From Vermamoeba vermiformis (lineage: Eukaryota), in assembly GCA_045837725.1 (NCBI GenBank), contig JBEWZL010000200.1, forward strand, positions 124,001-188,000: a DNA stretch of 64,000 nt. The letters run 5' to 3'. The notes below the pieces were generated by a model. It was not told the DNA's origin. It did no database searches and saw only the letters and a list, made by a program, of their open reading frames with translations. Made by a program: the position numbers and the translations under genes. Shown here in pieces: positions 29,880 through 63,466 of this stretch. Each line of letters opens with the position of its first letter. Within the stretch, counting starts at the first letter, position 1.

Positions 29880-29985
29880 AAAATGTTTCGATCGATCAGA
29901 TCCGAATCTGGATCTGCTTTCTCTTGTATAAATCAACAATAATAATATATAATAAACTTACGCGCATTCATTATTAAACACTATA

Positions 29986-32900
29986 CTACATCTTTGAGTC
30001 AAGAATAAAATTGAGTTCTTTGACGACTTGATCCATACTCGGTCGATCATCTGGTGATTGAGCCCAGCACTTGCTGATCAGTTCTGCGACTGTTATGGGA
30101 GTGTTAGGCGGGATCGGCAATCGACCGCCGTCAATGACCATGTTGGCGATCTGCCACGGGTGTTCCAAGTGCGAGTAAGGCATTTGTTGTGACATGATTG
30201 TCCACAAAAGAATGCCAAAGCTGTAAATGTCTGCTCCTTTCTCGTATCGCTTGTTCTCCATGATTTCTATCATTAACATTTTAGTACGTCAAACACTGAT
30301 GAATCAGATCAGCAGATCTGACACGTGTCACCACAAACATCTAATCCATTGACCGTGTCATGGTCATCGATGTTTGTGCCGTGTTGCAATTTAGCGTGTC
30401 AAAAAATGTCACGTGATCAGACTTACCAGGAGCCATGTAAGTAGGTGTGCCAACACCCTTGGTGAACTTCATGGTCACTTCTTCGACAATTGATCGAGCA
30501 GTGCCAAAGTCAGTCAGTTTGACATTCACTGATGCTTCTTTGGCTGTCGATGCAACCAACACATTCTCTGCTTTGATGTCGCGATGAAGAATGTTGTTTG
30601 CGTGCAAGAATTGAAGTGCTTCTGCAACATCCAATGCAATCTTCAGTTTCAATCCTGTGTCCAATGGTCTGCTGTTCAACAGTTCTTGAAGATTGCCTCC
30701 TGAAACGAACTCTGTCAAGATGGCAAGCTTTCCAGGCACTTTTGATGCTCCGATGAACTGCACAATGCATCTGTGGTGCAAGTTCATCATCATTTGCACT
30801 TCGCGGTTGAACTCTTCGAACTGTTGAATGTTCATTTCTTGGAACTACGATAGAAACAGAGTTAGTTCGAGCTTGACTTTTTTTGACACTTTTGACATGT
30901 TGACACGTGTCATTTGGTTTATCATTCACTTACCTTGAGCTTCTTGAAGGCGATCGTTTGACCACGATACTTGGCTTTGTACACAGCACCAAATCCTCCT
31001 TCACCAAGTGCTTCAGTCACACCATCAACTTCATCGATGTCAATCCAAGGTGATGGTTCACTTGCACAAACAAACTCGAGCAATGAGAACTGTTTGAGTT
31101 CAGGAACTTCGACCCACAGTGAGATGTTTGTGCGTGTTGTCATTCTCATTTGCAGCATCAGTGTCACATCGACATAACCTTTGTCGCGAATGTCAATCTC
31201 GAACGGGTCAACAGTGAGCTGGTATTTGGTCGACTGAACTGGATGAAAGTTGACACGAAGACTCTTCTCAAGAAGTCGCTCAACAAGGCCTCGGGACCGT
31301 GTAAGCTTTGCGCGGCTCTGCACTCGGAAGGTGTCTTTGTACATGGAGTCAACTTGCAAGAGATTGCCTTTGGTGCCAAAATCGAACTTTGTGTTTGACA
31401 ACTGAATGGGCAAGTCTTCGATTGGTTTGAGTGAGTAGTCTTCTGGTGCATGCCACTGAGGAAGTGAGAACTGATCGTCTGCTCCGTTCTTTGTGGTCAG
31501 TGTCAGCAGTTCCACTCTGTTCAACAATTGTTCAACTCGTCGTTTGCCTCTGAAATATCTGTACGTCACTGCACCGATTACGATGAAGAGTATGGAGCCA
31601 CCAGTTACAGAAATAACTATCGCGATAATTACGCCTGTCCGCATGTTGGTTAATAGTTGCTCAAAAATGACACGTGTCAAAGTGTCAAAGTGTCATTGCT
31701 TACCTTGCGCCACTGAGGTGTCAGGACAGGTCAATGATACCGTCAAGGCTTGTTTTCCTGATCTTTCGCTCGTGGAAGTTGTAATAATGCACTCTTTGCC
31801 TTCCGCAACAATGTTCAATTCATCGGTGGATCCGCAAGAGTAGAACAAGAATGTAGTCTCCAGGTGCGACTCTTCATACTCGCTCATGTCAATGGCGATA
31901 GTGCCTCTTGCTTCGATGCATTCTATATCAATTCTATTGCTGTGTTGAATCACCAAGGTGCCGCCATCAAGCAGAAGTTCTATCGTGAAAAACGTTAAAA
32001 AAAACGGAAGGGGCTTGGCGTTGGTTAATGTAACGTACTTTCAAAGTGGTCTGCGTCTCGTAAGTCAACCGTGGCACCTTTGGGGACGCGCAAAAGATTT
32101 TCAACGGGACATCCATTTGTAACTTCGCACGAGTATTGTGCGAGTGAGCAACAAAATTGGTTTGCGCCAATTGAACACCGTGCAGTACTGTTGCCCGACA
32201 CTCTGAACTGGTCGGGGAGTTGAATGCAGCCAGAAAACGAATTGCCCGTGATATTACTGGTAAGTGTTAGCGTCGTATTAAGGGTAAAGGGCCTTACATG
32301 TTCATCACATTGCCTAAATTGGTAAGTGAAGGCAGTGTTCCGCTGAGCTGGTTCGATGAGAGGTCTCTGTCGTGATATTATATTATGGGAAAGTGGCACA
32401 CGTTAAATAAATTTTTCTTACAAGTGCTCTAGGGCTCGCAAGTTGGCTATTTGACGCGAGACTGTGCCAGTTAGGGAATTTCGCGATAGATCGCTAACAC
32501 ATTAAAACAAGTTAGGTCGTGTGGTACTATAAGAATATATTGGTCTTACATCCGACGAACGCGTTGTAAACTAAAGAGACTGTGCGGGATTGTGCCACTC
32601 AATTGATTGCGACTTAGATCCAGGGCATTGATGCTTCGCAGGGAATCGAACATTGACGGGATCTCGCCCGTGAACATATTGCCTGCGAGGCTCCTGTCAT
32701 GGATTAGTTAGCACGAGAATACTAATGAATGGACTATGGATCATCCTTACAAATAGTGCAAGCTGAAGATTTCTCCCAAGTACGGCGGAATAGGCCCTTC
32801 AATTCGATTGCGCTCGACATTCCTTTAATCGGTCAATTAACGTGATAATTTGATAATTTAGAACACTTACAGAACTTCTAATCCCAAAAGATTAACGAAG

Positions 32901-36832: not shown

Positions 36833-37212
36833 TTTTACGTTTCTCTATTGCATCAAATAAATAAATATGAATATTGATGCATGTATTATAGCTTCGAAAA
36901 TATTATATAAAATAAATCATACAACTTTCGTGTCAGAAACTCATACAAGCTCACATTGACACGTGCACGCAACGCTTGTCGATTAACTTTTCCTACATTC
37001 GTAGGTTGACTTTAAAGTATTCCGTTAAGCTTCTTTGTTTGCTTGTCATGGCGCATTGTACTATGAACAGATTATTCGTAAAATTACGTTGCAATTCTCC
37101 ATTGTTTTTCAACCTCCTTTACCAACCATTTACATTCAATCTTAGCGGAAGCACTGGCCCCTACGAATAGCGATCGTCTAATATGATCAAGGAAGAATTT
37201 AAATTTGAATTT

Positions 37213-38939
37213 TTATTGAGTGATCCAACAAAGGTACGGCAGTTTTTCTACCAACATTTGTTTAAAACTTGCAAAGTTCGACAATGGTGTGTACACACTT
37301 ATATATTGCAGTCGTGTCATTAGGATCATTGGATATCCTTCCTGAATCTCGGATGTGATTGTTTTGCTGCCGGCTGCCAAATGCGTCAGCCGCGTCAACG
37401 AACTTAATGACAGATAGACATCGTGGTCAATAAGTGCGTCTATTTTAAGGAATTGCAATTTTGGAAGTTGAAGCTGACCCACTGACGAAATTGATTTGAC
37501 TGTCAGTGCCTTCATATTTGTTAGTGTACATAAATACGTATCAGTCACGCTTGTCTTGATGCTGTAGAATTGCTCTAATTTAGTCACTTTTGATAATTGT
37601 TCCGCGTCTTCAATCGTTTTCGCTCTTAAGACTGTCAGGTTCGTCAAGTGCTCAATAACACCTCTTTCCGTGACAGGATTTTCAGTGAAAAGATCCTCCA
37701 GGTTTGTCAACATTCGCATATTGGTGCATTGCAATTGGGGCACTTGGACTTTCAAACGTGTCAAGCGTGTCAAAGTTGACACGTCAACTGCGTATCTTGG
37801 ACAAGATCGTTGTCGCTTTGACATCGAAGATTCGAGTGTTAGTGATTGCAATGCTGTTAGCCTTGATATATCCTTTAGCTGAGGACTGTTGAATGTCAAT
37901 TCTATGTTCAGGGATGTGAGAGTATTGATATCGAAGTGATTGACTAGAGGACTGTTCGTTGCACACAATGAAACGGATCTAAGTTGCAAGCATGGAATAT
38001 GTGCTAATTGCTTAATGTTAATTGATCTACTAGTCACGGATAAGTCCTGCAATCGACTCAACTTGGAGATCTGTCGCCAATCCATCCGTTGATTCTTTAT
38101 CGTGAGTGAAGTGAGGTTCAAGTTCTTTGAAAGTGACTCCAATCTGATCTCTATATTTCTAATGGTCAACTGTTCTAAACTCGTCAAAGGCACTTCTTGC
38201 AGCACATGTTGTTTGATTTGCCTGTCTATCGAGAAATTTACAACCTTCAGATTACAAAATCTCTTAAATTGTTGTAAGGATATTTGTCTGGTGAAACTGC
38301 ACAATATCAATTTTGTTAGGGTCGTCGGGTTAGGAAGGGCTACATAATCAAATTCTTCTTGCCGTAAATAGTCAGTGTGGTCAAACTCTCGCAAATTATC
38401 AAATCGATCTAATCTCAGTGGTGGACTGTAACGCGATCTTAACACTAATCGCGTGAGTCGTGTAAACTCTGCTGCGAGCTGATAGTCATTAAATGGCAGG
38501 CCTAAATCTAGCAATTTTTCGGATGCGCTGAGAGGTTGAATGATTGTGTTATCATTGGTGCATAAGATCTGGCCGGAAAGCTTAATTGAAGAAAGATTTT
38601 GGAGGCCAGCAAGCTTGCAAAAGAACTGCTTTTGGGTTGTCTCGAACTTTTTTCACCACTTTCTTGAATTCGATTGATATTGGTTGATTAATTTGCTTAA
38701 CCGTCAAATCGTCGAGAAAATTCATTAATTGATCATATGGTAACGCTGGAACATTATAATGAATTTTTGGAATCGAGTTGTAATAATTGGTGCAACAGGA
38801 TCTCAGCTGATCAACAGTTTCACTCGTGGCGTACTGCGCCATGTGTTTGATAATTTCTATTGGAATATATATTGACTCGTTCTACATTTAAAAAAGGATT
38901 AGAATGGCAGATCCGCATCCGGTTTTGTTTTATTACCAT
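37213..38939 (-). CDS. F-box-like + leucine-rich repeat protein (apparent +1 frameshift in the T6 run at 38648-38653)
   Basis: ATG at 38939, intron 38936-38882, then NESIYIPIEIIKHMAQYATSETVDQLRSCC (F-box-like). A long exon carries LTxLxxL repeats. Removing one base from the homopolymer joins VVKK to FETTQKQFFCKLAGLQNLSSIKL and the 433-aa ORF. Confidence 0.72.
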
Positions 38940-39097
38940 TTCCTGGAGAAGTACGGTTTACCTGCCTATGTGTACGAAGTTACTTTAACTAGTTTTATGG
39001 TCTCTTCCTCTTTGCGGGCAATTTAACCACCCCAGGACCGTTCCTCTGACGATATCTTTTCTTGCCTTCTTCTCAAAAAGACTTAGCGCTCGATAAA

Positions 39098-42000
39098 ATG
39101 GAGTTGAACGACACAAAAAAGAAAAACAAACATAAAGAACGTTTATTGAAAGTGTGGAATGCTTTGAAAGGAGGTAGTGATTGTTATGGTTCAGATGTCG
39201 CGGATTTGACGTTGTTTACCTAGGCAAAAAGAAAAACAGCACCACTGCCAATACTAGACGTGCAAATTCAAGGCAACCAACCATTTTGTTACGGATCAAC
39301 ACAAAAAAAACATTATCATTAGGCCCCCAAGCAGGAAGAAAAACAAAAGCAAAAAAAGACCAAAACGAACCACCAGGAAAGCCACCAGAAGTGTGCTGGA
39401 AAAAGTGCAAGGAGAATGGGCCGTTTATGGACGTCATAAGTTGTGTTTGGACGTCGGAGTGGCGTATTATCATTTTAATGTTGAACCACGCAGACAGGAA
39501 GCAGAAAATAGATATATGGTCATTTATTTATTAAATCCAAACTAAATTTTTGGTTTTCTTCTTCTCGATCTGCGAGTTTTTTTTTTTTTTTTTTTTTTTT
39601 TATTATTGCCAGTTTATTATTATTTGAATTATTAATTTTTTTTTTGTTATTTTGATCCTAATATTTAATTATTTTTTTTTTTTATTATTGTTATTATTTG
39701 AATATTTGAATTATTTAATATTTTTTGAATTATTTTTTAACTTGCGTTTTTTCAGCAGGGAAGGCGGGGTGTAGTGCTTTGTAGGGAATATATTCTCGAA
39801 AGTCTGGGCGAGGCCATTTGTATTGTCTTCATGACCAGGAGGTGGCTACAGTAGATCTGGAAGAGTGTCAGGGGAATCTAATTTTCTTACATCAGATTGT
39901 CGGTAAATATATTGTTTGGGATGAATGAAAGTTCGTGTTGAGGGGGTGGGGAGAGAAAATATCGATATGTGGCTAGGAAAAAGTATTAAAGAGGGGAAAA
40001 TGTGCCATTATTTGCGAGGGGTGGTCAGAGGATCGGACACGGAGATGAGATGCTGCACGAAAAAGGAAATGAGAAGAGACTAGGAGCTAGGAACAGTGGA
40101 AACAAAATATAGAAAATAGCACAAGGTCTAATAAAGTGTGAGAAAACGAGGCGGATATAAGAGGAGTAAAAAAAGAAGAGGAGGAGGGAGAGAGGAGTGA
40201 GTGGAGGAGAGGGATGCTGAGAGGGAGAGGATAAGGAAGAAGGGGAGAGGGAGGGGAGGAGAGGGGGGGAGAGAGATGCAAGGGAGGAAGCGGGAGAAAA
40301 AGAGGAAAAAGAGGGAGGAGAGAGAAGAGGAGAGAGGGGAGAAAAAGAAAGGGGGAAAGAGAGCGGAAGAGAGGGGGAAAAGGAAGAAGAGATAAAATAG
40401 AGAAGAGAGGGAGGAGAATGAAGGAAGAAAAAAAGATCGAGGAAGTAAATAGAAGAGGGGGGAAAAAGAAGGGAAGAAAAGAGGGGAGGAAAGTAGTGAG
40501 GAGGATGATCAGAGAGAGGTAGGGGAGGCAAAATATTATATATGATAAGGGGGAGGATAGAAAAGAGGAGGAAGGAGGAAAAGAGAGAAAAAATTTAAAA
40601 TAGGGAATAAGCGTAGAAGGAGCTGAAAGAAGGAGAGGAAAGGGAGAAAAAGAGGGTTAGTAGGGAGGGGCAGGGGGGGGGGAAGAGAGGAAGAAAAGAC
40701 CACTGGAAAGGAGGGGAAGCAGAAGAGCGCAGGGAGAGAGAGGAGAAAGGGAGAGGAAGAGAGAGTAGAAAGATGGAGAAGGTCTGAAGAGGAGGAGAGA
40801 GAGGAAGAAGAGAAGGGGAGAAAGGCGGAGGGGGGGGGAGGAAGGAAGGAGGGGAGAAGGAGCAGAGAGAGGAGAAAGAAGAGGGGGGCAGGAAAAGAGG
40901 GGGGGGGGGGGCGAGGGAGGGGAAAGGGGAGAAAAAAAAGAAAAAAGTGATTGTTTGGTTCAGATGTCGCGGATTTGACGTTGTTTGCCTAGGTAAAAAG
41001 AAAAACAGCACCACTGCCAATACTAGGCGTGCAAATTCAAGGCACTCAATCCCTATTTTGTTTATCGGTATTCAGCATTTCCCAATAATCGTAAATTTAA
41101 TTTGTTAATTTAAACACTTTATCATTTAGGCCCTCCAAGCTCAGGATTAGCACATTTATTTATAGAATCTATATCAAATGCATATAACATTAATTTGGAC
41201 GACCACCAGAAAAATCAGATTTTGTTTCGCGAATCGTTGACAAAAGATCCACGGTTCTTATCGTTCCCAACGTCAGTCAGCACAATCACAAGCGATAATG
41301 ATGGCACTACAAATTATTTGTCTTTGTTGCCGCCCGAAATTCTAACGCGGGTCCTTGCGTTAACAAATCTGCCTGATCTGCTCAACATTTCGACATTAAT
41401 CAAATCGTTTGCCGAATGTACGTGATCATGAAGCAATATAATAGTTATAGACTCTAATAATTTAGTTTTGCGAGAGGACGAGTTTTGGAGACGCTATTTC
41501 GGTCCGGTGCAATCTGGAGCTGATCCGGCAATTAATAATTACAAAGCGCTGTTACGCAATTATCAAGAGCCCTTTGAAGTTTATGCAACGACTACTGATT
41601 TATTGTATGAATAGACCGTTTATAATCGTCAGCGAATTAACCTCTTATTTTATTAGCAAGATCCACTTCAGAAGCGCCTACGAGTTCCAAAATCTTCAGA
41701 AATTCGAAGAAATGACTTATTTTGTAACTTGCGTAAGTGGTCGGCGTTAGTATTTTTAAAACAAAAGTCCGATCTTCAAACCAAAAATGTTTATTTACAT
41801 TAGGTTGACACTTCACGGTTTGATGATGAAGAGTACATTGACAATCATTTGCACATCGTAACACAGCATTTAGAACGACAGCGAGACCGAGCCGAACTAG
41901 GATTTCCTATTATGGTGGTGTTCACTCGCATGGATAAATTGACCGAGAAGCTTGCTGACACGCGTAAGCACATGCACCTTAAAATAAAATCAAGACCTGA

Positions 42001-42307: not shown

Positions 42308-42432
42308 CCACTACAATTTCGAGTATTGTATAAACGGCAATATTGTTACTTTCGCAAACAAGACCAGCCATTCAATGACGGCGCCAAAAGATATTGAAAT
42401 TAATAGGTTTTAAAATTATGTACAATTAATGG

Positions 42433-45400
42433 TTAAATCTTCGAAGCAAGAAGGAAATTGAGTTCTTTGACGACTTGATCCATACTCGGTCGATCATCTG
42501 GTGACTGAGCCCAGCACTTGTTGATCAGTTCTGCGACTGCTACTGGAGCGGTTGGTGGAATGGGAAGGCGCTTGCCCTCGAGGACCATGTTGGCTACTTG
42601 CCACGGGTGTTCCAAGTGCGAGTAAGGCATTTGTTGCGACATGATTGTCCACAAAAGAATGCCAAAGCTGTAAATGTCTGCTCCTTTTTCATATCGCTTG
42701 TTCTCCATGATTTCTACAATAAAACGTTAGTATGAGAGCAACAGCAATTGAACGGCCGTGAGACCAGCAGTTCACGATGACACGTGTCAACATAAACTTT
42801 TGATGTCGTAGAACTTACCAGGAGCCATGTAAGTGGGAGTACCAACACCCTTGGTGAACTTCATGGTCACTTCTTCGACAATCGATCGAGCAGTGCCAAA
42901 GTCAGTCAGTTTGACATTCACTGATGCTTCTTTGGCTGTCGAGGCAACCAACACATTCTCTGCTTTGATGTCACGATGAAGAATGTTGTTTGCGTGCAAG
43001 AATTGAAGTGCTTCTGCAACATCCAATGCAATCTTCAGTTTCAATCCTGTGTCCAATGGTCTGCTGTTCAACAGTTCTTGAAGATTGCCTCCTGAAACGA
43101 ACTCTGTCAAGATGGCAAGCTTTCCAGGCACTTTTGATGCTCCGATGAACTGCACAATGCATCTGTGGTGCAAGTTCATCATCATTTGCACTTCGCGATT
43201 GAACTCTTCGAACTGCTGGATGTTCATTTCTTGGAACTACGATGGAAACAGAGTTAGTTTGAGCTTGACACCTTGATGACACTTTTGACACGTGTCAATC
43301 GCTTTATCGCAATGACTTACCTTGAGCTTCTTGAATGCGATCGTTTGACCTCTATATCGTGCTTTGTACACAGCGCCAAATCCTCCTTCACCAAGTGCTT
43401 CAGTCACACCATCAACTTCATCGATGTCGATCCAAGGTGATGGTTCGCTTGCACTAACGAATTCCAACAAAGAGAACTGTTTGAGTTCAGGAACTTCGAC
43501 CCACAGTGAGATGTTTGTGCGTGTTGTCATTCTCATTTGCAGCATCAGTGTCACGTCAACGAAGCCTTTGTCGCGTACATCGACTTCGAACGGGTCTATT
43601 GTCAGTTGATACTTTCGACGACTGAACTGGATGAAAGTTGACACGAAGACTCTTCTCGAGCAATCGTTCGATTAGTCCTCGCGACCTCGAGGCCTTAGTA
43701 CGTGGCTGTATCCTGAACGTGTCTTTGTACATGGAATCAACTTGCAAGAGATTGCCTTTGGTGCCAAAATCGAACTTTGTGTTTGACAATTGAATGGGCA
43801 AGTCTTCGATTGGTTTGAGCGAGTAGTCTTCTGGTGCATGCCACTGAGGAAGTGAGAACTGATCGTCTGCTCCGTTCTTTGTCGTCAGTGTCAGCAGTTC
43901 CACTCTGTTCAGCAGTTGTTCAACTCGTCGTTTGCCTCTGAAATATCTGTACGTCACTGCACCAATGACAATGAAGAGTATGCAACCGCCCGTAACAGAG
44001 ATTACAATTGCAATAATGACTCCTGTTAAAGTGTTGTAAGTTGACACGTGTCAATGTCTGATTCGTGCAACATACCTCGATCAAGTGACGTGTCTGGGCA
44101 CGAGACAGTAGCAGTGAACAATCGCTTTCCTGCTTGCTCGCGTAGACTCGTGGTCACGGAACAGACTTTGCCTTCAGCCTTCACTGTCATCTTCGACGTG
44201 TCACCGCACGAGAAGTACAAGAACGGCGCGTCATACTGCTCGTCCTCCAAGTCCTGCATGTCGATCTCTATTGCGCCCTCAATGGTGGCACACTCGACGT
44301 CAATTTGCTGGTCTGGCTTGATCACTAGAGTTCCGCCTTGTTCGATCCGAAGTTCTATAAGTTCGCGTGTTAGAATTGACCTTTCGCGAGCGGTATTATA
44401 CTTACTGTCAAAACTGTCTGCGTGCTCGTACTTGACACGTGCTCCTTGTGGAATCAAAAGTAATTGCTCAAGCGGACAACGTTCAGTGAAGTCGCACACG
44501 TATTCAGCGTTTGCACAGCAGAAATTGTTTCTAGCGAGTCCACAAGCAGCTGTACGATTGTTTGACGCTTCAAACTGTTCGGGTAACTGAATGCAGCCCG
44601 AAAACGCGTTGAGAGATATGTTGCTGTTGAATGTTAGAGGATTGAAATTTTCAGATCTATGTCAGGGTGACTTACAAGTTCACCAAGTTCCGCAGATTAG
44701 ACAAGTTTGGTATTGTTCCGCTGAGTCGATTGCGTGAAAGATCACTATTACATCGTCGTTAGTGTTAGTCTTCAGACCATGACCGAATGACTCACAGGAA
44801 TTCGAGCGTTCGCACGTTGACAATAGAAGACGGAATGGTGCCGCTCAGCGAGTTTCGCGCCAAATTACTACGAAGGCGTTAGCTTGCATTAAATGGGTGT
44901 TGCGAAGTGAGACTTACATCCGCGATACGCGCTGCAGATTGAACAAACTGGGCGGAATTTCTCCCGAGAGTCGGTTGTTGCTCAGATCCAGCTGAGTGAT
45001 GGAGCGCAAAGACTCGAATAATAGCGGAATAGTGCCGACCAAGTTGTTGTGAGACATGAACAGGCCTTGTAACGTGTACATCTCGCCAATAAATGAGGGG
45101 AAAGTCCCGTCTAATCTGTTCATCGTGACATCCAAATTTTCAAGCGCTCGTAGATCCACAAAACTCGGCGGGATGTTTCCCGTCAAACTATTTCCAGCGA
45201 CAAGACTATTGAAGGTAATTAATTAGTATAACTTTCCCGGATAACATTGAATCACGTACAAGTCTCGCAAAGACCTGAGCGAACTAAGCTGAGACGGAAT
45301 TTGCCCTACGATCCTGTTGAATGATAGATCGCTAATAATATTGTTAATAAGCAATAGAGGGGATAAGGGTTGAGCTAACTTACAGCACTTCGAGCATTGG

Positions 45401-49216: not shown

Positions 49217-49632
49217 CTCCACATCCACTGATTAAATATACAACTCGTTGTTGTGAACCGTAAGTATCAACAATAGATAATATCAATTTTTACCATAATT
49301 TACGGAATATTTGACGAGTGATTGACAGCTTGTTTCTCGTACGAGGATCGCGAAACAGAAGGTTCGGAGGAGAAACTATCATTGCGACTACGAGCAATAT
49401 ATTTGAAATACCATCATGTTATCGGTATACTACCAGCGACTGTTTTGCATGAGCTGGATCGACATCACAATGGTAAGCCTGAAATATCGTATTCCTTTTC
49501 CGGTGAGACGTCAAGTCAAGTCAAGTCAAAAAATTCGTAACAATTATAGCGTGCTGATTTGAACACTGCAGCACAAAGCTTGGTGTAGTGCAAACGCACA
49601 TGAAGAAGGGGAGCAGACAGTGAATTTTACGG
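49217..49632. promoter_or_regulatory. Putative bidirectional promoter between divergently transcribed RK2 and RK3
   Basis: About 415 bp separates the two head-to-head start codons. Regulatory function is inferred from position only. Confidence 0.5.
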
Positions 49633-52600: not shown

Positions 52601-55600
52601 TACCATTGCTCCTCCAATTACTGACTTTGCGAAAGTTCGTTTGCATCCAATCTTCTCACGGGCACATTTCCGATCGAGTACACGCAAATCCCTGGCTTGG
52701 CGACGCTGTAAGATGAGAATTCTATATAGCGCCCTATACTAACGGGTCTTAACTTCAGTGATTTGTCCAATAATGACCTGTACGGCCCGTTCCCGAGAGG
52801 AATTCCGCAGAACCTTCCTTTTCGACATTTAGACGTGTCGCACAATCGAATGAATGGCACGATCCCTTCCGGATTGATTTCACAATCAATTCAGACCTTG
52901 TAAGCTCTCTCCTTACTGTCCGTTTTATATGAAACTAACCGTGACCATATTGTAGAATTTTGTCAAACAATCACTTTGGCGGAACTCTACCGACGTACAA
53001 TTCACTGGCATTCAATTTGCATACATTGTAAGTGGTCCGATACGATATCGTTCAATTCGACGTCAGCGTTAGTGCGCTAATTACTTCAATCAACAGACTA
53101 TTGGACAACAACCGAATCGGAGGAAATGTACCACGTGCCCAATTTTCATTAATGAACCTCGAAGTATTGTACGTGACGTCATATTCGACTTATCAACGGA
53201 ATTAGTTCTTACATTAATTATTCCAGGAACTTGTCTGGCAATCTTTTGCGAGGCAATTTGCCAGCAATTACGCAACGTCTACGTAGATTGCGAGTGCTGT
53301 ACGTAATCTTAATGCATGTCAATAAGCACTCACTAACATTGCTCGTAGTAACATCTCGTTCAATTTTATATCCGGCGTTCTTCCGCCCTCGCTATCGAAC
53401 ATTGTTAATCTCGAAGAGCTGTAAGTATAAGCTCATCGTATCTGAATTTCTAACGTTCGACAGAAACCTATCGGCGAACGACTTTATTGGCACGATTCCT
53501 TCTCAGTTAGGCGCTTTGGCCAGTCTTCGAGTATTGTAAGTTGCAGATGTAAAATCGGTGTATTGATTAAATCTGTCTAGGAACTTGGCCGTGAATCACT
53601 TAACTGGCGGAATCCCGATTAGTTTTGCAGGCCATGAGTCCCTGACGTCACTGTAAGAAAAGAACGGCACCTCTATTAATGATTAACCCGTAAATAGGAT
53701 TCTCAAGTCTAACCAGCTGTCTGGCACTATTCCGAACTACATTTGTGAACTTTTCAATCTTCAACGACTGTAAGAATCCACTCTAAAAATCAGTGCAAAA
53801 TATTAACCGAGCTATTTTTAGTGATTTGTCGGTCAATTATTTCACTGGAACTCTTCCCGAGTCAATAGAACAACTGCGAGGCTTGCACTATCTGTAAGGA
53901 TTACTAACGGTGTCGTTGAAGAGCTCTTCTTAATTGTGCTTAGGGACCTCGGAAAAAATCACATATCGGGCGAGATCCCTGTCAATTTGTTCGCCTTGCA
54001 GCGACTGCGCCGATTGTAAGTCGAACTGACTTAAAATATTCTAATGCGGAGGTGACTAATGCTGATGTAGGGATCTCTCGCAAAACGAACTTTCAGGCAC
54101 TATTCCACAGGAAATATCAAACGCACGCTTGATTGAATGGATAAACTTGTCGCGCAATAAGCTCCAAGGAACTCTGCCTTCATTAATGGGACTAACTGAA
54201 GTCATAGAATTGTACGTACTTGAGATTTCTTAGTAGTCTTCTTCTAACAATCCTTCAGCCATATTGCCTCGAACAATTTAGTCGGCTGCATACAGCTGCC
54301 ACGCATATTTGAAAGTTCTCGGAACAGATCCCACATAGCAGCCTGTTCCATCGACAACAACCGTTTCTGCTGTTCACGCAATGACTACGTGTGCTCTACA
54401 ACAGGTTCGTTGGCTTTTTAATCGCTGCACACGTGCTTTTGATTCTAATCTCGTCATTACAATCCAGATTATTGCCCACTAGATGAAGCTTTGATAATTG
54501 CCAGTGGAGACCGCGTTCGAATCAAACCTCGCTTCCATTATGACAGTAAGCTTTCAGATGTCTTGACGGCGCTTATTTAACACGTATCAGAGCTTGTCGT
54601 AGAGCAAGGCGGCACTCTTGTGATATTGCCCGAGACAAAGTTAGACATTGAGTGCGTGACGGTACTCGGTACAATTGAAGTTGACGTCAGTGAGTTAGAA
54701 GAAGAGTCTATAGACGTGCCATTTTTGTCGTTCTCGTGCGGTGAGACGGAGAGTATGACTATGACAGCTGTGGGCTTTGGAAAGAAATGCGAAGTTTCTA
54801 GCACGACCGTTCAAAATGCTGGCTCGAAACGAAAGTTCACCGCCAAAGTCCCATGTCCTAACAATTTACTGCCAGAAGGTACGGAGTTGAAACCCATTCC
54901 TTTACAGTCGCTAACATACTGCTGTAGGAACGATCATTGCCATCATCGTGTCAGTTACTGGTGGTTTCATTTTAGTGATTGTAATTGGTGGCGTGACGTA
55001 CAGATATTTCAGAGGCAAACGACGAGTTGAACAACTGTTGAACAGAGTGGAACTGCTGACACTGACCACAAAGAACGGAGCAGACGATCAGTTCTCACTT
55101 CCTCAGTGGCATGCACCAGAAGACTACTCGCTCAAACCAATCGAAGACTTGCCCATTCAATTGTCAAACACAAAGTTCGACTTTGGAACCAAAGGCAATC
55201 TCTTGCAAGTCGACTCCATGTACAAAGACACCTTCAGAGTGCAGAGCCGCACCAAGATTGGTCAGTCCCGAGGACTTGTTGAGCGACTACTTGAGAAGAG
55301 TCTTCGTGTCAACTTTCATCCAGTTCAGTCGACCAAGTACCAGCTCACAGTTGATCCGTTCGAGATTGACATTCGCGACAAAGGTTACGTCGATGTGACA
55401 CTGATGCTGCAAATGAGAATGACAACACGCACAAACATCTCACTGTGGGTCGAAGTTCCTGAACTCAAACAGTTCTCTTTGTTGGAATTCGTTTGTGCAA
55501 GTGAACCATCACCTTGGATCGACATCGATGAAGTTGATGGTGTGACTGAAGCACTTGGTGAAGGAGGATTTGGTGCTGTGTACAAAGCCAAGTATCGTGG

Positions 55601-56465
55601 TCAAACGATCGCATTCAAGAAGCTCAAAGTAAGTCGCCAAGAAGGAATGACACGTGTCAAAAGTGTCATCAAGTGTCAAGCTTGAACTAACTCTGTTTCT
55701 ATTGTAGTTCCAAGAGATGAACATCCAGCAGTTCGAAGAGTTCAATCGTGAAGTGCAAATGATGATGAACTTGCACCACAGATGCATTGTGCAGTTCATC
55801 GGAGCATCAAAAGTGCCTGGAAAGCTTGCCATCTTGACAGAGTTCGTTTCAGGAGGCAATCTTCAAGAACTGTTGAACAGCAGACCATTGGACACAGGAT
55901 TGAAACTGAAGATTGCATTGGATGTTGCAGAAGCACTTCAATTCTTGCACGCAAACAACATTCTTCATCGTGACATCAAAGCAGAGAATGTGTTGGTTGC
56001 ATCGACAGCCAAAGAAGCATCAGTGAATGTCAAACTGACTGACTTTGGCACTGCTCGATCAATTGTTGAAGAAGTGACCATGAAGTTCACAAAAGGCATT
56101 GGCACGCCTACATACATGGCTCCTGGTAAGTCCTACCACATCGCAATATTACACGAACGAGGTACTAACGCATTACAGAAATTCTTGAGAACAAGCGATA
56201 CGAGAAAGGAGCAGACATTTACAGCTTTGGCATTCTTTTGTGGACAATCATGTCGCAACAAATGCCTTACTCGCACTTGGAACACCCATGGCAGATCGCC
56301 AACATGGTCATTGAAGGTAAACGCTTGACCATGCCGCCAACCGCGCCAGTGGCAGTGGCAGAACTGATCAGCAAGTGCTGGGCTCAATCACCAGATGATC
56401 GACCGAGTATGGATCAAGTCGTCAAAGAACTGGATTTAATTATCGAACTTGCAAACGCACACTAA
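49633..56465 (+). CDS. LRR receptor kinase RK3
   Basis: Signal peptide, DVCSWGRVNC, about 31 LRR-bearing exons (50100-54403), TM GTIIAIIVSVTGGFILVIVIGGVTY, and a complete kinase. Confidence 0.92.
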
Positions 56466-59400
56466 ACTATTAAACTCTGTAGCGCAGAAATGCCGTTACA
56501 ATCATAAAAATTTATCTGGAACAAGGTCCGTTACGCTATTTTTACTTTACGTTAAGGTTATAACGACAAAAGTAGAATGTAACTTTAATTAGAACATGGG
56601 AAAAGATGCAAACAAGCTTTGAGAAATTTAATTACGCGGATGTGATTCATTTTTTCGACATGACAGCCCAAATTTTCACTTGTCCTCATCAATGGCATTG
56701 TGTCGCTGTGATAGACGGAACAAACATGCTTTGCCATTAATATAATTAAAAGTATGCGAGATAATTATTTATTTGTGCTCATCCAGCTGGTTTTGCTCTT
56801 GCTCACGAGCTTTACGTTTGGCGATTTAATACCCTCCGAGCAAATATTTTTTGAGGAATTATTACAGCAAAATCCCACGCTGAGCCCGAGTTTAAATCCA
56901 GGCGGATCGATTAATCGACCATGCTCTTGGTTCGGTGTTTTGTGCACCGCCACCGGAGAGAATGCTTTAGAGATGTAAGTAATCATTATTTGCAATGGTT
57001 ACAACGGAGTGGTTGCTTGATTGATCTGATCAACCTAATCCATTTCCTTCTAACACGACTGATTCCATTATTTTCATTAGAAGTTTGATACTACAGTTTA
57101 ATGTCATACCAAACTCTATTGGCAACCTTCAATATTTGAGATCGCTGTAAGTTCCAGATCAGCTCATTTTTATTCCCTTATTTTTCTTTAATAAAATGTA
57201 AATATCAAATTAATAATTATGCTAATGCATCTTGCAGAGGGTTGTCGGGCAGAGTATTGGCAATCCCACCAGAAATTGCAAAACTTAATCAAACACTAGA
57301 AAATCTGTAAGTTACGTTACAGATCCGAAAACAGCATGTTATTTAATCTATTTAAGCTATTTATTATTTAATCTAACTGCCTCATTTGCTAGGAGGATTA
57401 TTGGCGCCCAGATCAACGAGACAGATGTCACTTACTTGCTACCGCTTCGTAATCTTCGCATTTTGTAAGTACTTTACTATTATACGCTTAATATTTAAAT
57501 GCTTACTAATTGTTATTAAGAACACTCACTTTGTCAGTCCCTCGGGTCTCAACTTTACCGCCGAACTTCGCAACGTCTTTTCCGAATCTAGTCGAGCTGT
57601 ACGAAAATTCGTTAATACTCACGAGGATAATGCGTACTAATGCCTTCTCAGACAATTGCCAGAATCCTTAACAGCGTTGCCGGATCTGTCGGCCTTGCAG
57701 AGATTGAGAACATTGTAAGTGGACGACGGTACTAACAACAATTATCTAATTATAAATTATAATTAAGGATATTAAGGGGCTATAACGGTCCCTTCCACGA
57801 CTCAATTTGCAATCTAATAGGATTAGAACGGTTGGATCTCGAAAATGCGCTTGGAGTGAGAAGACTTCCTGAATGCATTAACAGAGTTATTAGCTTGCGA
57901 TATTTGTACGTTAATTATTACAATTACGATGCTCAGAATTTAACTTGGATGCAGGAACTTGGCCCGATCCGGTCTTGGATTTGTTCCAAATGTTTATGGC
58001 TTGCGCTTCCTCGAAGAACTGTAAGAATATTCTTTAATAATGAACGTAACCATTCTTATATTAATAAATTATTTAGGTATTTGAACGAAATTAGGGCCGT
58101 GGGAACAATATCACCTGAAATTGGACAGTTGACGAGCCTCAAAATATTGTACGATAGACAGTACACCATATATGGACAAATAATATGATACTGATACTAA
58201 ATTTATAGCCATGGCGAATCTATGACGACAACTAGCGGACTGCTTCCTGATACGATCGGCAATCTCGTAAATTTGGTCGAATTGTATGCGCCGAAATTGT
58301 TCATTTTATTATCGAACTAACCTAGATATTAAATAGGAAGTTGTTTAATAACGAAATTAGTGGCACTATTCCAGCGAGTATCGGGAATCTTAAACAACTG
58401 AAAATGCTGTAAGAAAAATATCTGGTATACTTATTGTACTAATTTATTTGCCTTCAAGAGATTTACGACAAAATAGCTTAGAGGGCACCATACCGAACGA
58501 AATTGTTAATTGTGAGAGCATGGAAGTTATGTACGTAAATTTTGTTTATTGAATCAAAACGACCAAACTAATCACGATCTTTCGATAACGATAGAATGTT
58601 AGATAATAATATGCTCAGTGGTACAATACCGAATGACTTGGGAAGGCTAAAAAACTTGATGGGCCTACAAATCATAAGCAACGTGCTTGAAGGCACAATT
58701 CCTGCGTCATTAGCGCAGTGTAGCAATCTGTCGCTCATGTAAGCATAATTTAACTCGTCGTATTTAACACGATATGTCTAACGTTATCAGCGCGCTCATG
58801 TCAAATCAACTGACCGGAACATTGCCGCCAGAATTCTCACAGCTGTCAAATCTGGTTCATTTGTAAGTCCATGATTTTCATCGACCTTTTGTTTGACATA
58901 TTGACAGGGTTATGGGCAATAATCTGTTGCATGGCACGATCCCGCGGTCGTACTCGAATCTACGTAAGCTCTGGAGCATGTAAGTACTAGGGCAATGGAC
59001 AGCATGTGTCAAAGTGTCACTAACAAGATTGACACGTGTCACAAACTGCTACCCAGTACAGCGAACAAAATTAACAACCTTTACTTTCAGTCAACTGTCA
59101 TACAATAATTTGGAGGGGTCGCTCATTAGCTTTGCTGAAATGCCAGAACTACGGTCAATGTAAGGGCTTTGAACTTACTCTTATGAATCTGCGACACTAA
59201 CGGCGCTAACAGAACAATGGAATTTAATCGCCTTACGGGCGCCATTCCCGACACATTTTACACCAATACGGTGTTGAGTCACGTTTTCTTGCAAAACAAC
59301 GAATTATCGGGCACTATTCCGCAGTCAATCAGTTTGCTGCCAAGCATATTGGACATGTACGACAAAAAAATTTTAGCATTTTTCAGTGCGCTACTAACCC

Positions 59401-62400
59401 TACTGTCGCAGCAATTTGAGCCGAAACCAACTACGCGGAACAATTCATCCTGCAACCTTTCTAGATAGATCATTAGTACGGCTGTACGTAATTAATAGCT
59501 GCGATTAATCATCGATAATTAACTAATTGATGGCAGCGACTACTCGAACAACTTGCTCGAAGGGCCGTTACCTCCTATTAGATCCGCTGTGCTCAACATG
59601 GTGTACGTCTTTCGATTAGTCAATTTCGGACTAAAAGCAAAATACTAACAATAATTTCGAAGAAATCTTGCAAATAATAGGTTGAACGGTTCAATTGGCC
59701 ATTTCAGTGCATGTGGGCAGTGCGCTACTATGTACGTAAATACTAATATTATTATTCGCTTTATTAATCTTAATCTCTGTATAGTGACCTCTCAAATAAT
59801 TTCTTCGAGGGATCATTGCCTGACCTCAACACAAGGATGACTCAGTTGTACGTAAAACAAGGTTACTTTTTGTTCGCAATTACTAACTCAACTTATTGTA
59901 GCGACCTGTCGCGTAACCAATTAAGCGGAACCATTCCCCAATATTACGTTTCGAACACTCATTTGAATCGATTGTAAGTGCAGGATGTTAATTGACCTCT
60001 AATTAACAAATCTAACGGAGCCTATTTTAGGGTGTTAGCGCATAACAATCTTACTGGAGAACTTTTAACGGACGGTTGGCCTCTGCTGCGGCACGTGTAA
60101 GTAAAATGAAAAATTTAATACGACTACAAAAATAACCCAAAAATAGAGATGTCTCTTATAATCAATTGCAAGGAACCATTCCAAGACGACTTATGGAGGT
60201 TGCCCAAGTTTTGTAAGCATCAGATCTAACTTTTTTTTCGTTTTCGGCCTAACTTATTTACTTAGAATTTTTTCGCATAATCAATTCTCTGGCCCATTTC
60301 CATCAGTATTTATCCGAACAGACTTGGTGCGGATCCATTTTGACAATAATAGGCTCTCAGATCTACTTCGTCCTAGTTTCCTCGATCATCCGAACTTGGA
60401 AATTATGTAAGAACAACACTATTAGCGGCTAATTATTACTTTATTAATGCATTAGCAGGGACCTTTCAAACAACAATTTCCGTGGCATGTTGCCGGCAAT
60501 TACATTATCGCAGCCATCGAAGTTACGAGTGCTGTAAGTCACAATCTTACTTGCCAAATAAGGCAATATTAATATGGTATACTGATAGGCGCATGTCTGG
60601 CAATCGCTTTATGGGCGCAGTTCCGGGCACATTTGCGCTGATGGCGAGCCTCGAGATCCTGTATGTCAAACACAAAATTCTAAGAAATCCTAACTAATGC
60701 TTCTTTTGCAGTGACTTATCGAATAACTTACTGAATGGTCAATTACCGCCACAATGGGGCTCATTTAGACACTTGCGTGAATTGTACGGTGAAAATTCTA
60801 GCACCCGCGCGTACCGCTAACTTTTTGCATCTAGGTACCTGTCTGATAATCGATTTACTGGAAACTTCCCGGCAACATTTGATGCTCTTGAGTCCCTCGA
60901 AGTACTGTACGTATAGCTATTATATTATTTTGTAACCTGTCTTCTCACCAATCGCATCAGTGACGTGTCCAACAACAATTTTGATGGACCACTGCCCGGC
61001 GCTCTGTTTAACTTGTTGACTTTGCAATCATTGTAAGACCGTTAAATACAGTAGTAATGTATTGATTATTAATAATTTTGCAGGAACATGGCTCACAATC
61101 GATTCACCGATCAGATCCACATTACTTTGTTCCAACTCTTGCTTACGCTTACGGACATGTATGGCCTTAAAGCTTAGCATACTAACACCTTACTAACCTA
61201 TTATAGTAATTTGAGCCACAACTTGTTCACGGGCACACTGCCGACAACATTGTTCAATTTGCATCGTATCAGACGAATGTACGTTCACCTCGGCAATCCG
61301 TTCTTGCATAATGTACTCATTATTATAACTTCGTAGTGATCTATCGTATAATTCTTTGACGGGCACCATCCCTAGTGCAGTATCAAATATGAGAACTCTC
61401 GAAGAACTGTAAGCCGATAATTTTTCACAGTCTCCTTGCGCGGAATGCTAATTAAACATCTTGTTAGATCGCTATCGGCAAATCAACTGAGCGGAACAAT
61501 ACCTGTATTGTCTGGATTGAAAAACTTGGCCAAATTGTACGTCAACATCAATGACCTGGTCATAAGCAAGGCTCTAACCTTTCCTTATTTAGTAATGTCG
61601 ATTCAAACTCGTTGACTGGCTGTCTGCGGCTACCAACTCGATTCTTAGCCTCAAATAACTCTACGACGTACACAGGTCAATGTTCAATCGAAGGAAATCC
61701 AATCTGTTGCAGTCCAGAGCAGTACACGTGCACGACTAGCGGTACGAACTATGGAGCTAGAGTCAATGTCCGTGTGCTAAACAAGAGTTATCTTTGCAGG
61801 TTGCAATGCAGACCGTGTGTTACATGCCAGTCAAGACCGGGCCTGGGTTATAGTCCGCACTGAAGGCTTTCCCTATGACAGTAAGTTGTCATATTAAGCA
61901 CAATTGTCATTATAACTCATCAACTGCTTTGCAGAAATCATTGTGGACCCGGGAGCAGTGCTGACATTGCCGACAGCTTTCAGTGGCTCAGTCTACTGTG
62001 CAAATGTCACGGGTGTCATCGAAATACTGCCCGTACACAGCGAGACATATGCTCCTACGGTCGTAACTCACACTTGCGGCGTGTTCTCTCCGAGTTCAGT
62101 GTTCATGAGGGACGAGCGATGTCGCATTACAAATCGTGCAGTGAGTGCGCAAGGTGATGCAACAACGTACACGTATGACTGGCAGTGCACGCAGCCTGAG
62201 CCAGCTGTGTCGACTGGAGTGGTTGTAGCTGCTGTAGTTACGAGTGTTGGTGGCACTATTTTGTTCGTGGTGATTGGCATCATTTCCGTGCGTTATGTAC
62301 GAGGCAAACGACGAGTCGAACAACTGTTGAACAGAGTGGAACTGCTGACACTGACCACAAAGAACGGAGCAGACGATCAGTTCTCACTTCCTCAGTGGCA

Positions 62401-63466
62401 TGCACCAGAAGACTACTCGCTCAAACCAATCGAAGACTTGCCCATTCAGTTGTCAAACACAAAGTTCGACTTTGGCACCAAAGGCAATCTCTTGCAAGTT
62501 GATTCCATGTACAAGGACACGTTCACGATGCAAGCCAAAGCAAAGCCGAGCAACTCCCGCGGCTTAATTGAACGACTCATCGAGAAGACTGTGCACGTTC
62601 AGTTCCATCCAGTTCAGTCGTCAAAGTTCCAACTCACCGTGGACCCAGCTGAAATTGATCTTCGCGGCAAAGATGAAGTTAGTGTGACACTGATGCTGCA
62701 AATGAGAATGACAACACGCACAAACATCTCACTGTGGGTCGAAGTTCCTGAACTCAAACAGTTCTCTTTGCTCGAGTTTGTTTGTGCAAGTGAACCATCA
62801 CCTTGGATTGACATCGATGACGTCAACGACATTAGCGAGCCACTTGGTGAAGGAGGGTTTGGTGCTGTGTACAAAGCCAAGTACCGTGGACAACAAGTGG
62901 CGTTTAAGAAACTCAAGGTAAGTTGTGACAATTAATGAAATGACACGTGTCAACACGTCAAAAGTGTCATTTACTAATCGCTGTCATGAACAGTACCAGG
63001 AAATGGACCTACCATTGCTTGAAGAGTTCAACCGCGAAGTGCAAATGATGATGAACTTGCACCACAGATGCATTGTGCAGTTCATCGGAGCATCAAAAGT
63101 GCCTGGAAAGCTTGCCATCTTGACAGAGTTCGTTTCAGGAGGCAATCTTCAAGAACTGTTGAACAGCAGACCATTGGACACAGGATTGAAACTGAAGATT
63201 GCATTGGATGTTGCAGAAGCACTTCAGTTCTTGCACGCGAACAACATTCTTCATCGTGACATCAAAGCAGAGAATGTGTTGGTTGCATCGACAGCCAAAG
63301 AAGCATCAGTGAATGTCAAACTGACTGACTTTGGCACTGCTCGATCGATTGTCGAAGAAGTGACCATGAAGTTCACCAAGGGTGTTGGTACTCCCACTTA
63401 CATGGCTCCTGGTAAGTCTGATCACGTGGCACTTTTTGACACCGTGAAAAATATTGACACGTGTCA
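55648..63466. repeat. Intronic palindrome TGACACGTGTCA copies in RK3 (55648) and RK4 (59030, 62941, 63455)
   Basis: Perfect copies, all intronic, mostly with adjacent AAGTGTCA/TTTGACAC half-sites. Confidence 0.9.

Follow-up and report, generated by a model that had tools for sequence, protein, structure and literature searches.

A recurrent palindromic 12-mer with half-site repeats in introns of LRR-TM-kinase paralogs and other genes of Vermamoeba vermiformis: candidate protein-binding sites

The 12-bp perfect palindrome TGACACGTGTCA occurs in 12 exact copies in a 64-kb window, i.e. the whole stretch of Vermamoeba vermiformis DNA analyzed here, and all 12 copies lie within spliceosomal introns. 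Their occurrence is non-random, within the window they are restricted to introns, they share a half-site architecture, and they are conserved above their flanks. A motif that is non-random, intronic and under constraint can reasonably be read as a protein-binding signal. Based on sequence comparison, we tentatively propose that the TGACACGTGTCA elements form a conserved intragenic cluster of protein-binding sites, and that the most likely ligand would be a putative paired DNA-binding protein.

Under a first-order model 0.004 copies of TGACACGTGTCA are expected in the window, and none of 100 dinucleotide-preserving shuffles contained any copy; hence, chance is excluded. The preliminary description of this DNA had counted 12 perfect copies, located them correctly, and rightly assumed that such a 12-mer is expected far less than once in 64 kb. 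The motif accounts for the most over-represented 8-, 10- and 12-mer of the window and largely explains its surplus of 12-bp palindromes (34 observed versus 14 in shuffles), and no other 12-bp palindrome recurs more than twice in the window. Besides the 12 perfect copies there are two with one mismatch and six with two mismatches, whereas chance alone would give about two copies with no more than two mismatches. The one-mismatch copies (2142 and 11894), absent from the preliminary description, lie in two further genes. Allowing for paralogy, the 12 perfect copies represent about six independent loci. A longer sequence common to the copies was sought within the window and not found. A literature search, with subscription journals and supplements outside its scope, yielded no description of TGACACGTGTCA in introns; it returned only primers, plant G-box/ABRE contexts and unrelated work.

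Table 1. Positions of the perfect and one-mismatch copies in the window, and of a related, incomplete site. K0, K1 and K2 are the kinase-module introns of the LRR-TM-kinase paralogs A to D.
Match	Position	Location	Neighborhood
perfect	3768..3779	63-nt intron 3749-3811, minus, splitting ArfGap domain	two degenerate TGACA half-sites upstream (sense)
perfect	9705..9716	129-nt intron 9638-9766, minus, TPR gene	extra GTGTCA 14 nt downstream (sense)
perfect	30319..30330	K2 of paralog A, intron 30267-30426, minus, 160 nt	
perfect	30901..30912	K1 of paralog A, 30845-30933, minus, 89 nt	22-33 nt from 5' splice site, then half-site repeats
perfect	31668..31679	K0 of paralog A, 31635-31703, minus, 69 nt	two extra half-sites, 8-nt spacing
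perfect	42778..42789	K2 of paralog B, 42714-42818, minus, 105 nt	
perfect, 14 bp with T/A flanks	43286..43297	K1 of paralog B, 43237-43320, minus, 84 nt	two extra half-sites
perfect, 14 bp with flanks	44042..44053	K0 of paralog B, 44023-44075, minus, only 53 nt	
perfect	55648..55659	K1 of paralog C, 55629-55707, plus, 79 nt	two extra GTGTCA, 9- and 10-nt spacing; sole copy left in C
perfect	59030..59041	LRR intron of paralog D, 58980-59090, plus, 111 nt (median about 54 nt)	two GTGTCA upstream
perfect	62941..62952	K1 of paralog D, 62918-62993, plus, 76 nt	within 32-nt island
perfect	63455..63466	K2 of paralog D, 63412-63563, plus, 152 nt	
one mismatch (central G to C)	2142..2153	plus intron 2121-2364, upstream of BTB/BACK exons	22-33 nt from 5' splice site; two half-sites downstream
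one mismatch	11894..11905	75-nt intron 11852-11926, minus, EF-hand gene	22-33 nt from 5' splice site
related, incomplete site	36930..36965	about 100-130 nt upstream of paralog A ATG (36832, minus)	CACGTGTCAAT plus inverted TGACAC 27 nt away

Together with the one-mismatch copies, 14 of 14 copies are intronic and spread over eight genes, and none lies in a promoter or other intergenic DNA, which on a rough reading accounts for around half of the window's non-coding DNA. A perfect copy is found in nine of the 11 kinase-module introns of the four LRR-TM-kinase paralogs, and in only one of about 105-139 LRR introns. The two remaining perfect copies belong to introns of an ArfGAP and a TPR gene outside the kinase family, and the one-mismatch copies to introns of a BTB/BACK and an EF-hand gene; the EF-hand gene intron keeps the reading frame and contains no stop codon. 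The split into nine kinase-module introns, one LRR intron and two unrelated genes that had been reported is correct on intron mapping. The implication of its title, that the motif marks the kinase module as such, is not supported, given the copies in ArfGAP, TPR, BTB/BACK and EF-hand introns with normal TA content. The window also encodes Zn2Cys6, BTB, F-box, ArfGap and TPR domains, a repertoire that, taken alone, would suggest a fungus-like eukaryote; a literature search for early-diverging fungi with LRR kinases yielded only unrelated work. In eight of the 14 copies the motif starts 20-25 nt from the 5' splice site. Motif-bearing introns have a median length of 86.5 nt (n = 14), compared with 54.5 nt for 138 LRR intron candidates without the motif. 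Sites in the kinase genes are located at the 3' end, 5-6 kb from the start codon, and a motif-like cluster was seen in one promoter only, as the incomplete site of paralog A.

All 12 perfect copies consist of two inverted TGACA pentamers with a 2-bp spacer (TGACA-CG-TGTCA). The tandem half-sites that had been described as their usual company are real: nine of the 12 carry at least one extra exact GTGTCA or TGACAC within 40 nt, where the background predicts about 0.07 per 80 nt. In eight of these nine, the extra half-sites are direct repeats of the adjacent half, the exception in orientation being the LRR intron copy of paralog D at 59030 with its two upstream GTGTCA. Degenerate half-site copies retain TGTCA. 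Over the whole window, GTGTCA and TGACAC occur 43 and 40 times (15 and 13 expected), while the enrichment of the pentamers TGTCA and TGACA is modest (113 and 95 versus 78 and 75 expected). The repeated unit is (G)TGTCA, not CACGTG. Counted by independent loci, the sense-strand form of the extra half-sites is GTGTCA at four and TGACAC at three; this lack of a strand preference is more in line with double-stranded DNA than with a motif in single-stranded RNA.

The four paralogs allow a comparison of the motif with its surroundings. Introns K1 and K2 interrupt the Pkinase profile at 41/42 and 166/167, and K0 appears as a clean presence/absence gap relative to paralog D. A protein search yielded one match, a 44%-identical kinase (JGI source). 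All four paralogs share exon blocks, up to about 360 nt long, at 100% identity. In K2 of paralogs A, B and D (105-160 nt), the 12-mer is kept despite an identity of 0-63% per 40 columns, i.e. in largely unalignable sequence, and the 53-nt K2 of paralog C aligns to both ends of the 105-nt K2 of B. In K1 of paralog D, the motif sits in an island of 32 nt that shares 97% identity with K1 of A, with adjoining exon ends of only 52-75% identity. The K1 introns of A, B and C are 85-94% alike over 33-53 nt. Hence, the earlier statement that the surrounding intron is often not conserved stands for K2 and for K1 of D outside the island, but not for K1 of A, B and C. Paralog C has lost two of its three motif copies, and its exons are still identical to those of the other paralogs. 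In paralog A, a 25-nt stretch of the K0 cluster is 92% identical to the reverse complement of the K1 cluster. As judged from these alignments, the motif is kept while the flanking intron, and even the exon, diverges, and it appears to be under constraint.

According to the model that we favor, the 12-mer would form a high-affinity core within a short composite element of DNA. In this element two inverted TGACA(C) half-sites abut, and one to three additional half-sites, spaced by 8-14 bp, usually follow on one side. A sequence-specific protein could occupy the palindrome as a dimer and the repeats as added monomers. Purifying selection would retain the element in transcribed regions, where it would act as an intragenic (intronic) cis-regulatory module; the strongest targets would be the four LRR-TM-kinase paralogs with one to three modules each, the other genes having one. 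We infer a protein on DNA that is TALE-homeodomain-like rather than of the bHLH/bZIP type, and its binding may exert an enhancer or silencer effect, cause polymerase pausing, or influence transcription-coupled splicing. That the promoter of paralog A contains a partial copy together with an inverted half-site is consistent with a bound protein, as are the inconsistent folds of RNA or single strands and the lack of a matching Rfam family. Four features argue against it. The ratio of perfect to one-off copies (12:2) is stricter than usual, since factor sites normally tolerate mismatches; all 14 copies are intronic and none is found in a promoter or in intergenic DNA; a site read at the DNA level has no obvious reason to keep a distance of 20-25 nt from the 5' splice site, as 8 of 14 do; and the sites in the kinase genes are far (5-6 kb) from the start codon.

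Alternatively, the motif could act in pre-mRNA. As a self-complementary tag, of which each copy is able to pair with every other, it could let marked introns pair and loop out an exon (skipping or back-splicing); or else a nuclear RNA-binding protein might recognize a stem of 4-6 bp closed by an ACGU loop and thereby adjust splicing or intron retention. The restriction of 14 of 14 copies to introns and the start of eight of them 20-25 nt past the 5' splice site would fit such a role, a base-pairing requirement would fit the strictness of the sequence, and both one-mismatch copies are altered at positions 7 or 8, i.e. in the would-be loop. Furthermore, the TM/linker and kinase-core exons are bracketed by marked introns; any two motif-bearing introns can form duplexes at -27 to -69 kcal/mol, versus -7 to -22 kcal/mol when one partner is motif-less; and the K0 and K1 clusters of paralog A are the near reverse complements mentioned above. 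Nevertheless, we consider an action in pre-mRNA unlikely. Intron pairs from the same gene (-34 to -60 kcal/mol) are no better than pairs across genes, and paralog C as well as the four other genes have no partner in cis, because each has a single motif copy. A length of 12 bp is short for intron bridging. Most fold z-scores of the introns are near zero: with RNA parameters, three of ten introns reach z <= -2.25 and the rest range from -1.31 to +1.06, and with DNA parameters one of eight reaches z <= -2. A hairpin as the unifying feature was dropped, as RNA and DNA folding gave no consistent structure. In addition, stems bound in RNA usually covary and are not invariant as here, and the extra half-sites occur in either sense orientation. 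A search of the whole window against Rfam at the gathering threshold found only a tRNA; in E-value mode, positions 30200-31760 and 58900-63600 gave nothing relevant, the single match (E = 0.92) being exonic. Mimicry of the branch point by TTGAC was considered and set aside, all marked introns having another branch-like sequence (of the looser yUnAy form).

It is likewise improbable that the copies are functionless remnants of a very small foldback-type insertion, or of local slippage of the unit GTGTCAAA, which would look conserved due to their youth or to micro-conversion. The arrangement (TGACAC-N)n TGACAC|GTGTCA (N-GTGTCA)m is indeed the layout of a miniature foldback element with sub-repeats, and the greater length of the motif introns points in the same direction. 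The LRR intron of paralog D resembles a minimal intron of 47 nt with an insert of 64 nt, for which an imperfect hairpin is possible, without a target-site duplication at this hairpin, and the alignment of K2 of C with that of B looks as if about 50 nt had been gained or lost. The eight near-copies with one or two mismatches, against about two expected, suggest some decay. Yet neutral remnants predict many more imperfect than perfect copies, and the motif outlives its flanks in K2 and in K1 of D. When the 14 introns were compared with the window by blastn-short, non-homologous copies shared only 16-25 nt, centered on the motif; an element of which the copies in unrelated genes have no more in common is not an ordinary MITE or introner. 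No common termini, shared interior or target-site duplications were seen in the 14 flanks, and K0 of paralog B bears the motif in a minimal intron of 53 nt. Random insertion can account neither for copies in nine of 11 kinase-module introns versus one of about 105-139 LRR introns of the same genes, nor for the missing intergenic copies. The remnant of a common MITE had been named beforehand as an explanation that would speak against a signal; within the window, neither a full-length consensus nor defined termini nor duplications were found.

The preliminary description had proposed, as one option, a recombination or gene-conversion signal. In that case, a protein-bound hotspot or nuclease site at the palindrome would drive or delimit the homogenization of the kinase module. 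The only three intron positions in or beside the homogenized module carry the motif (nine of 11 introns), the four paralogs have fully identical exon blocks (up to about 360 nt), and the 32-nt island in K1 of D could be a short conversion patch centered on the motif; moreover, factor-bound hotspots are known from fission yeast. However, paralog identity drops toward K2 from both sides and around K1 of D, and the introns beside the supposed break sites are the least homogenized parts. This fall in identity toward the marked introns argues against a role in starting gene conversion. Furthermore, two tract borders (at alignment columns of about 1100 and 1260) lie in a motif-less exon, paralog C retains identical exons with one copy left, and the copies in the ArfGAP, TPR, BTB/BACK and EF-hand genes lack a paralogous counterpart in the window. 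A palindrome of 12 bp is also too short for cruciform extrusion. We therefore regard a conversion signal as very unlikely. Even fainter is the prospect that a bound protein delimits a domain of kinase-module homogenization and TA stripping, as part of a DNA-level process that handles the exons between marked introns as one unit; in that case the marked introns would be fences around a segment that is protected or repaired in a special way, and the single copies in other genes inert or incipient fences.

Close to refuted is the alternative, also raised earlier, that the 12-mer is the end product of a process that cleared TA from the kinase exons and turned the TA steps of a former AT-rich palindrome into TG, CA or CG: the motif is TA-free and built of these steps, TA is missing over 379-404 nt of the neighboring exon, where CA and TG are in excess (1.8-1.9), and the all-A/T counterpart of the motif occurs once in the window (48452), but several changes are open to each TA, which makes one and the same outcome at six independent loci unexpected, the TA content is ordinary around three of the 12 perfect copies (rho 0.77-0.92; 0.86-0.92 around the ArfGAP and TPR copies, two of these loci), intermediate forms are absent from the window, and the half-site repeats are left unexplained.

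If the motif is a bound site, it would imply a regulator of unusually exact specificity with targets inside genes rather than in promoters, among them receptor kinases that combine variable LRR ectodomains with a common kinase module evolving in concert. Should it instead act in RNA, it would represent a genome-wide intron tag without known precedent. In either case, a single 12-mer offers a precise handle, by mutation, pull-down or counting, on the regulation and upkeep of a rapidly diversifying receptor family, and it can be used to ask if the TA-free, 100% identical neighboring exons are linked to the motif.

What remains is the comparison with known systems. Complementary intronic sequences can loop out exons through tens to hundreds of paired bases that are gene-specific. 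Similar to such pairs, complementary sequences flank an exon on both sides here (K0/K1 and K1/K2); different are the universal 12-mer, which often occurs once per gene, and the same-gene pairs that are not better than others. In fission yeast, recombination hotspots can depend on transcription factors, and a bound bZIP/CRE-like short motif can create a hotspot. The palindrome is likewise a short motif resembling a bZIP/CRE site, but the paralog identity profile has no peak at it.

The hexamer CACGTG is the G-box/E-box bound by bHLH or bZIP dimers. It is present at positions 4-9 of 12 of 12 copies and has the dyad expected for a homodimer; hence, the core noted in the preliminary description is there, but it is not the recurring unit. 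The repeats beside the motif (GTGTCA/TGACAC or TGTCA) do not contain CACGTG, and the conserved span of 12-14 bp exceeds a typical E-box footprint. The window contains 25 other CACGTG sites, a population of their own in which the flanks mostly differ and are often TCACGTGA-like: at 23 of them neither side has the TGA...TCA flank, and at two it is present on one side only.

Introners and MITEs are short sequences with inverted repeats that populate numerous introns in unrelated genes; the invasive intronic elements of PMC7789003 are one example. The inverted-repeat motif is similarly distributed across introns of unrelated genes, and the marked introns are longer than the local norm. Our copies differ in that they share nothing longer than 16-25 nt and have neither terminal repeats where the introns end nor a target-site duplication.

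Our motif also resembles the sites of TALE homeodomain proteins; this resemblance rests on the probe sequence in an excerpt of one paper (PMC6158717) and on SELEX data. No TALE homeodomain gene lies within the 64-kb window. Two differences stand out: the two bases in the center are CG in our motif, with an invariant C/G at position 6/7, and GC in the reference, and the motif is intron-only and far stricter than usual factor sites. According to the same excerpt, the canonical TGIF1 site is 5'-ATTGACAGCTGTCAAT-3', with one monomer per TGACA. Like this TGIF1/MEIS site, the palindrome has a 5+2+5 layout with outer T/A flanks, and only the two central bases differ; 14 of 16 positions of the reference agree with TTGACACGTGTCAA flanked by A/T, the extended form that is most frequent here. 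TGIF1/MEIS-type TALE homeodomains also recognize single TGACA/TGTCA units (PMC6158717, excerpt), and such single-unit recognition would fit the half-site repeats beside the motif.

The palindrome TGACACGTGTCA, composed of two abutting inverted half-sites (TGACAC and GTGTCA), occurs in 12 perfect copies in the 64-kb window; our recount reproduces exactly the number and positions given in the preliminary description. The first-order expectation for this 12-mer is 0.004, each of 100 dinucleotide-preserving shuffles contained 0 copies, and the motif is the top over-represented 8-, 10- and 12-mer of the window. The window has more 12-bp palindromes than its shuffles (34 versus ~14), mostly on account of this motif; every other one is present at most twice. 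Near-copies comprise two with one mismatch and six with two mismatches; for the perfect, one- and two-mismatch classes together, chance predicts about two. Hence, perfect copies far outnumber near-perfect ones (12 versus 2). Two of the two-mismatch sites, in poorly annotated DNA downstream of paralog B, may be decayed copies.

The window consists of intron-rich eukaryotic DNA (~40% G+C), which encodes Zn2Cys6 (tandem genes), BTB/BACK, F-box, EF-hand, ArfGap, TPR and EXPERA domains. Its 30-64 kb portion is occupied by four LRR-TM-kinase paralogs (A to D), each with some 25-30 short phase-2 introns that separate LRR exons of 66-72 nt. An intron chain model that keeps the reading frame predicts 28 introns for A, 31 for B (one of them a false call within an exon) and 30 for D, the model for C having ended early; a looser intron rule gives 139 candidates in the LRR parts, with a median of 54.5 nt.

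Coordinates of motif copies, paralogs and neighboring features in the window
Feature	Position	Strand	Remarks
Paralog A	end 29986	minus	signal peptide start 36832
Paralog B	end 42433	minus	signal peptide start ~49216 (read by eye from sequence)
Paralog C	end 56465	plus	
Paralog D	end 63844	plus	
Perfect copy	3768	minus	63-nt intron; interrupts ArfGap domain
Perfect copy	9705		129-nt intron of TPR gene
Perfect copy	59030		111-nt LRR intron of D (58980-59090)
One-mismatch copy	2142		intron upstream of BTB/BACK exons; 22-33 nt from 5' splice site
One-mismatch copy	11894		75-nt in-frame intron of EF-hand gene (11852-11926); 22-33 nt from 5' splice site; intron has no stop codons, retention would add 25 residues
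Upstream N-terminal open frame, EF-hand gene	12850-13356		Pro/Gln/Gly/Tyr-rich
Two-mismatch pair	41956, 41998		
K0 introns	31635-31703 (A), 44023-44075 (B), 54879-54927 (C)		none in D (62100-62200)
Aligned kinase module	29950-32100 (A), 42400-44450 (B), 54480-56480 (C), 61500-63860 (D)		
TA-free kinase-core stretch	30442-30846 (A), 42840-43238 (B), 55705-56109 (C), 63010-63389 (D)		
Cluster in promoter of A	36930-36965		~100-130 nt upstream of start codon; CACGTGTCAAT with inverted TGACAC 27 nt off; sole motif-like cluster seen in a promoter
Half-sites GTGTCA, GTGTCA, TGACAC	37758-37782		within 25 nt; order unlike intronic clusters; inside long open frame of separate LRR gene (37213-38652, minus strand)
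Four GTCAA units, then A's	~49505-49530		5' region of C, possibly in a 5' intron; look like degenerate half-sites
Purine-rich low-complexity tract	40025-41110		G/A tandem units of 20-68 nt; GC skew +0.43; inside 3.8-kb gap from LRR gene to B; several frames open on both strands
CACGTG outside motif (examples)	13853, 16300, 18537, 24738, 24751, 30410, 45612, 63423		24738 and 24751 form a pair 13 nt apart; three CACGTG sites directly follow 5' splice sites
Zn2Cys6 binuclear-cluster open frames (four, tandem)	14427-15449, 17203-17865, 20453-21178, 22788-23546	minus	
tRNA-Glu (CUC), single	4550-4623	minus	between ArfGAP gene and unassigned open frames

All 12 perfect copies and both one-mismatch copies are located in introns, and none of these 14 is exonic or intergenic in the window. 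In the kinase module shared by the paralogs (TM/linker and kinase exons), 9 of 11 introns carry the motif, i.e. those at position K0 in A and B, at K1 in all four paralogs, and at K2 in A, B and D. The Pkinase profile is interrupted by K1 at 41/42 and by K2 at 166/167; K0 appears as a clean gap in the alignment to D, which has no intron at that position. Among the LRR introns of the kinase genes, only 1 of ~105-139 possesses a copy. Once paralogy is taken into account, the 12 copies reduce to about six independent loci, or eight with the near-perfect ones. Intergenic and intronic DNA are, on a rough reading, about equally abundant in the window, and the restriction to introns therefore corresponds to roughly 0.5^6 to 0.5^8; at ~6-8 independent loci, confinement to introns is suggestive, not proven. 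Judged from its sequence context within these 64 kb, the motif would be an unusually exact intragenic cis-element found only in introns. At the level of titles and abstracts, a literature search for the 12-mer and its sub-strings did not turn up any account of an element of this kind in introns.

The lengths of the 14 marked introns, i.e. those holding a perfect or one-mismatch copy, range from 53 to 244 nt (median 86.5 nt). Measured from the 5' splice site, the start of the motif is at 20-25 nt in eight of them and at 30-97 nt in the remaining ones, and the sequence common to unrelated marked introns amounts to merely 16-25 nt around the motif. Further exact half-sites lie within 40 nt of 9 of the 12 perfect copies and are repeats of the adjacent half in eight of these nine, the exception being the LRR intron of D. 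The architecture can be written as (TGACAC-N)n TGACAC/GTGTCA (N-GTGTCA)m, with start-to-start distances of 8-14 nt; degenerate repeats retain TGTCA. Read in the sense of transcription, the extra half-sites are GTGTCA at four independent loci and TGACAC at three. At 16 of 28 flanks, the 12-mer is bordered by T (left) or A (right). The LRR intron of D has twice the length normal for its family; its ~64 extra nucleotides can fold into an imperfect hairpin (z = -2.25 for the RNA fold), and a minimal intron of 47 nt is left without them.

The kinase module has a mosaic structure, in which A, B, C and D share exon blocks that are 100% identical and reach ~360 nt in length. Identity is 52-80% in other parts of its exons and 20-60% in the LRR region. 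On either side of K2, paralog identity drops within ~40 nt of the intron. A, B and D retain the perfect 12-mer at K2 despite introns that are mostly unalignable. At K1 of D, a 32-nt island that includes the motif plus two half-sites matches K1 of A at 97% identity; the adjoining exon ends show just 52-75% identity to the other paralogs. The K2 intron of C (53 nt), which aligns to both ends of that of B (105 nt), lacks the motif, as does K0 of C. The motif, kept at K2 of A, B and D and at K1 of D but gone from K2 of C, is therefore conserved beyond its surroundings, yet losable. The module as a whole displays mosaic concerted evolution, with diverged exon stretches and heterologous introns between the identical blocks, which occupy the same places as TA-free runs. 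Between K1 and K2, the kinase-core exon of each of the four paralogs is devoid of TA for 379-404 nt (mean TA spacing in the window: 14 nt), with CA at 1.86, TG at 1.77 and CG at 0.46 relative to expectation; TA-free runs in the TM/linker exon are shorter (96-195 nt).

The recurring unit of these clusters is the half-site (G)TGTCA/TGACA(C) rather than CACGTG, which the preliminary description regarded as a G-box/E-box core. CACGTG occurs at 37 sites versus 10.5 expected; 25 of these are outside motif copies, and most have other flanks, often TCACGTGA-like. Our analysis leads us to propose, tentatively, that the motif is a composite site which a putative dimer-forming DNA-binding protein would occupy and which selection would keep inside genes. 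The promoter of A also has a partial site, accompanied by an inverted half-site. Three properties count against a protein-binding site: the sequence is strict, the copies are confined to introns, and a certain distance from the 5' splice site is preferred.

The same three properties would suit a motif acting at the RNA level, the main rival, and pairing is possible between any two marked introns (-27 to -69 kcal/mol). However, pairs within one gene are no better than those between genes, and several genes have one copy alone; we consider an RNA-level role rather unlikely. A known RNA family or a consistently stable fold is rejected: Rfam searches yielded no match to the motif introns, and z-scores reach -2.25 or below in 3 of 10 introns with RNA parameters, and -2 or below in 1 of 8 with DNA parameters. 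Paralog identity, which is lowest, not highest, beside marked introns, speaks against the earlier proposal of a recombination or gene-conversion signal; moreover, two tract borders fall in exon without a motif, and C still has exons identical to those of the other paralogs. An end product of TA erasure, suggested as well, is at odds with the same 12-mer at independent loci and with three copies amid normal TA content. An ordinary MITE or introner is dismissed, as marked introns share no consensus and show neither termini nor duplications.

For the composite protein-binding site, the closest comparison is with the TGIF1 homeodomain, whose canonical site 5'-ATTGACAGCTGTCAAT-3' binds one monomer per half (PMC6158717). 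The TGIF1 site resembles the motif in its inverted TGACA pentamers, 2-bp spacer and T/A flanks; this layout, together with the half-site as recurring unit, is why a site for a dimer-forming protein is favored.
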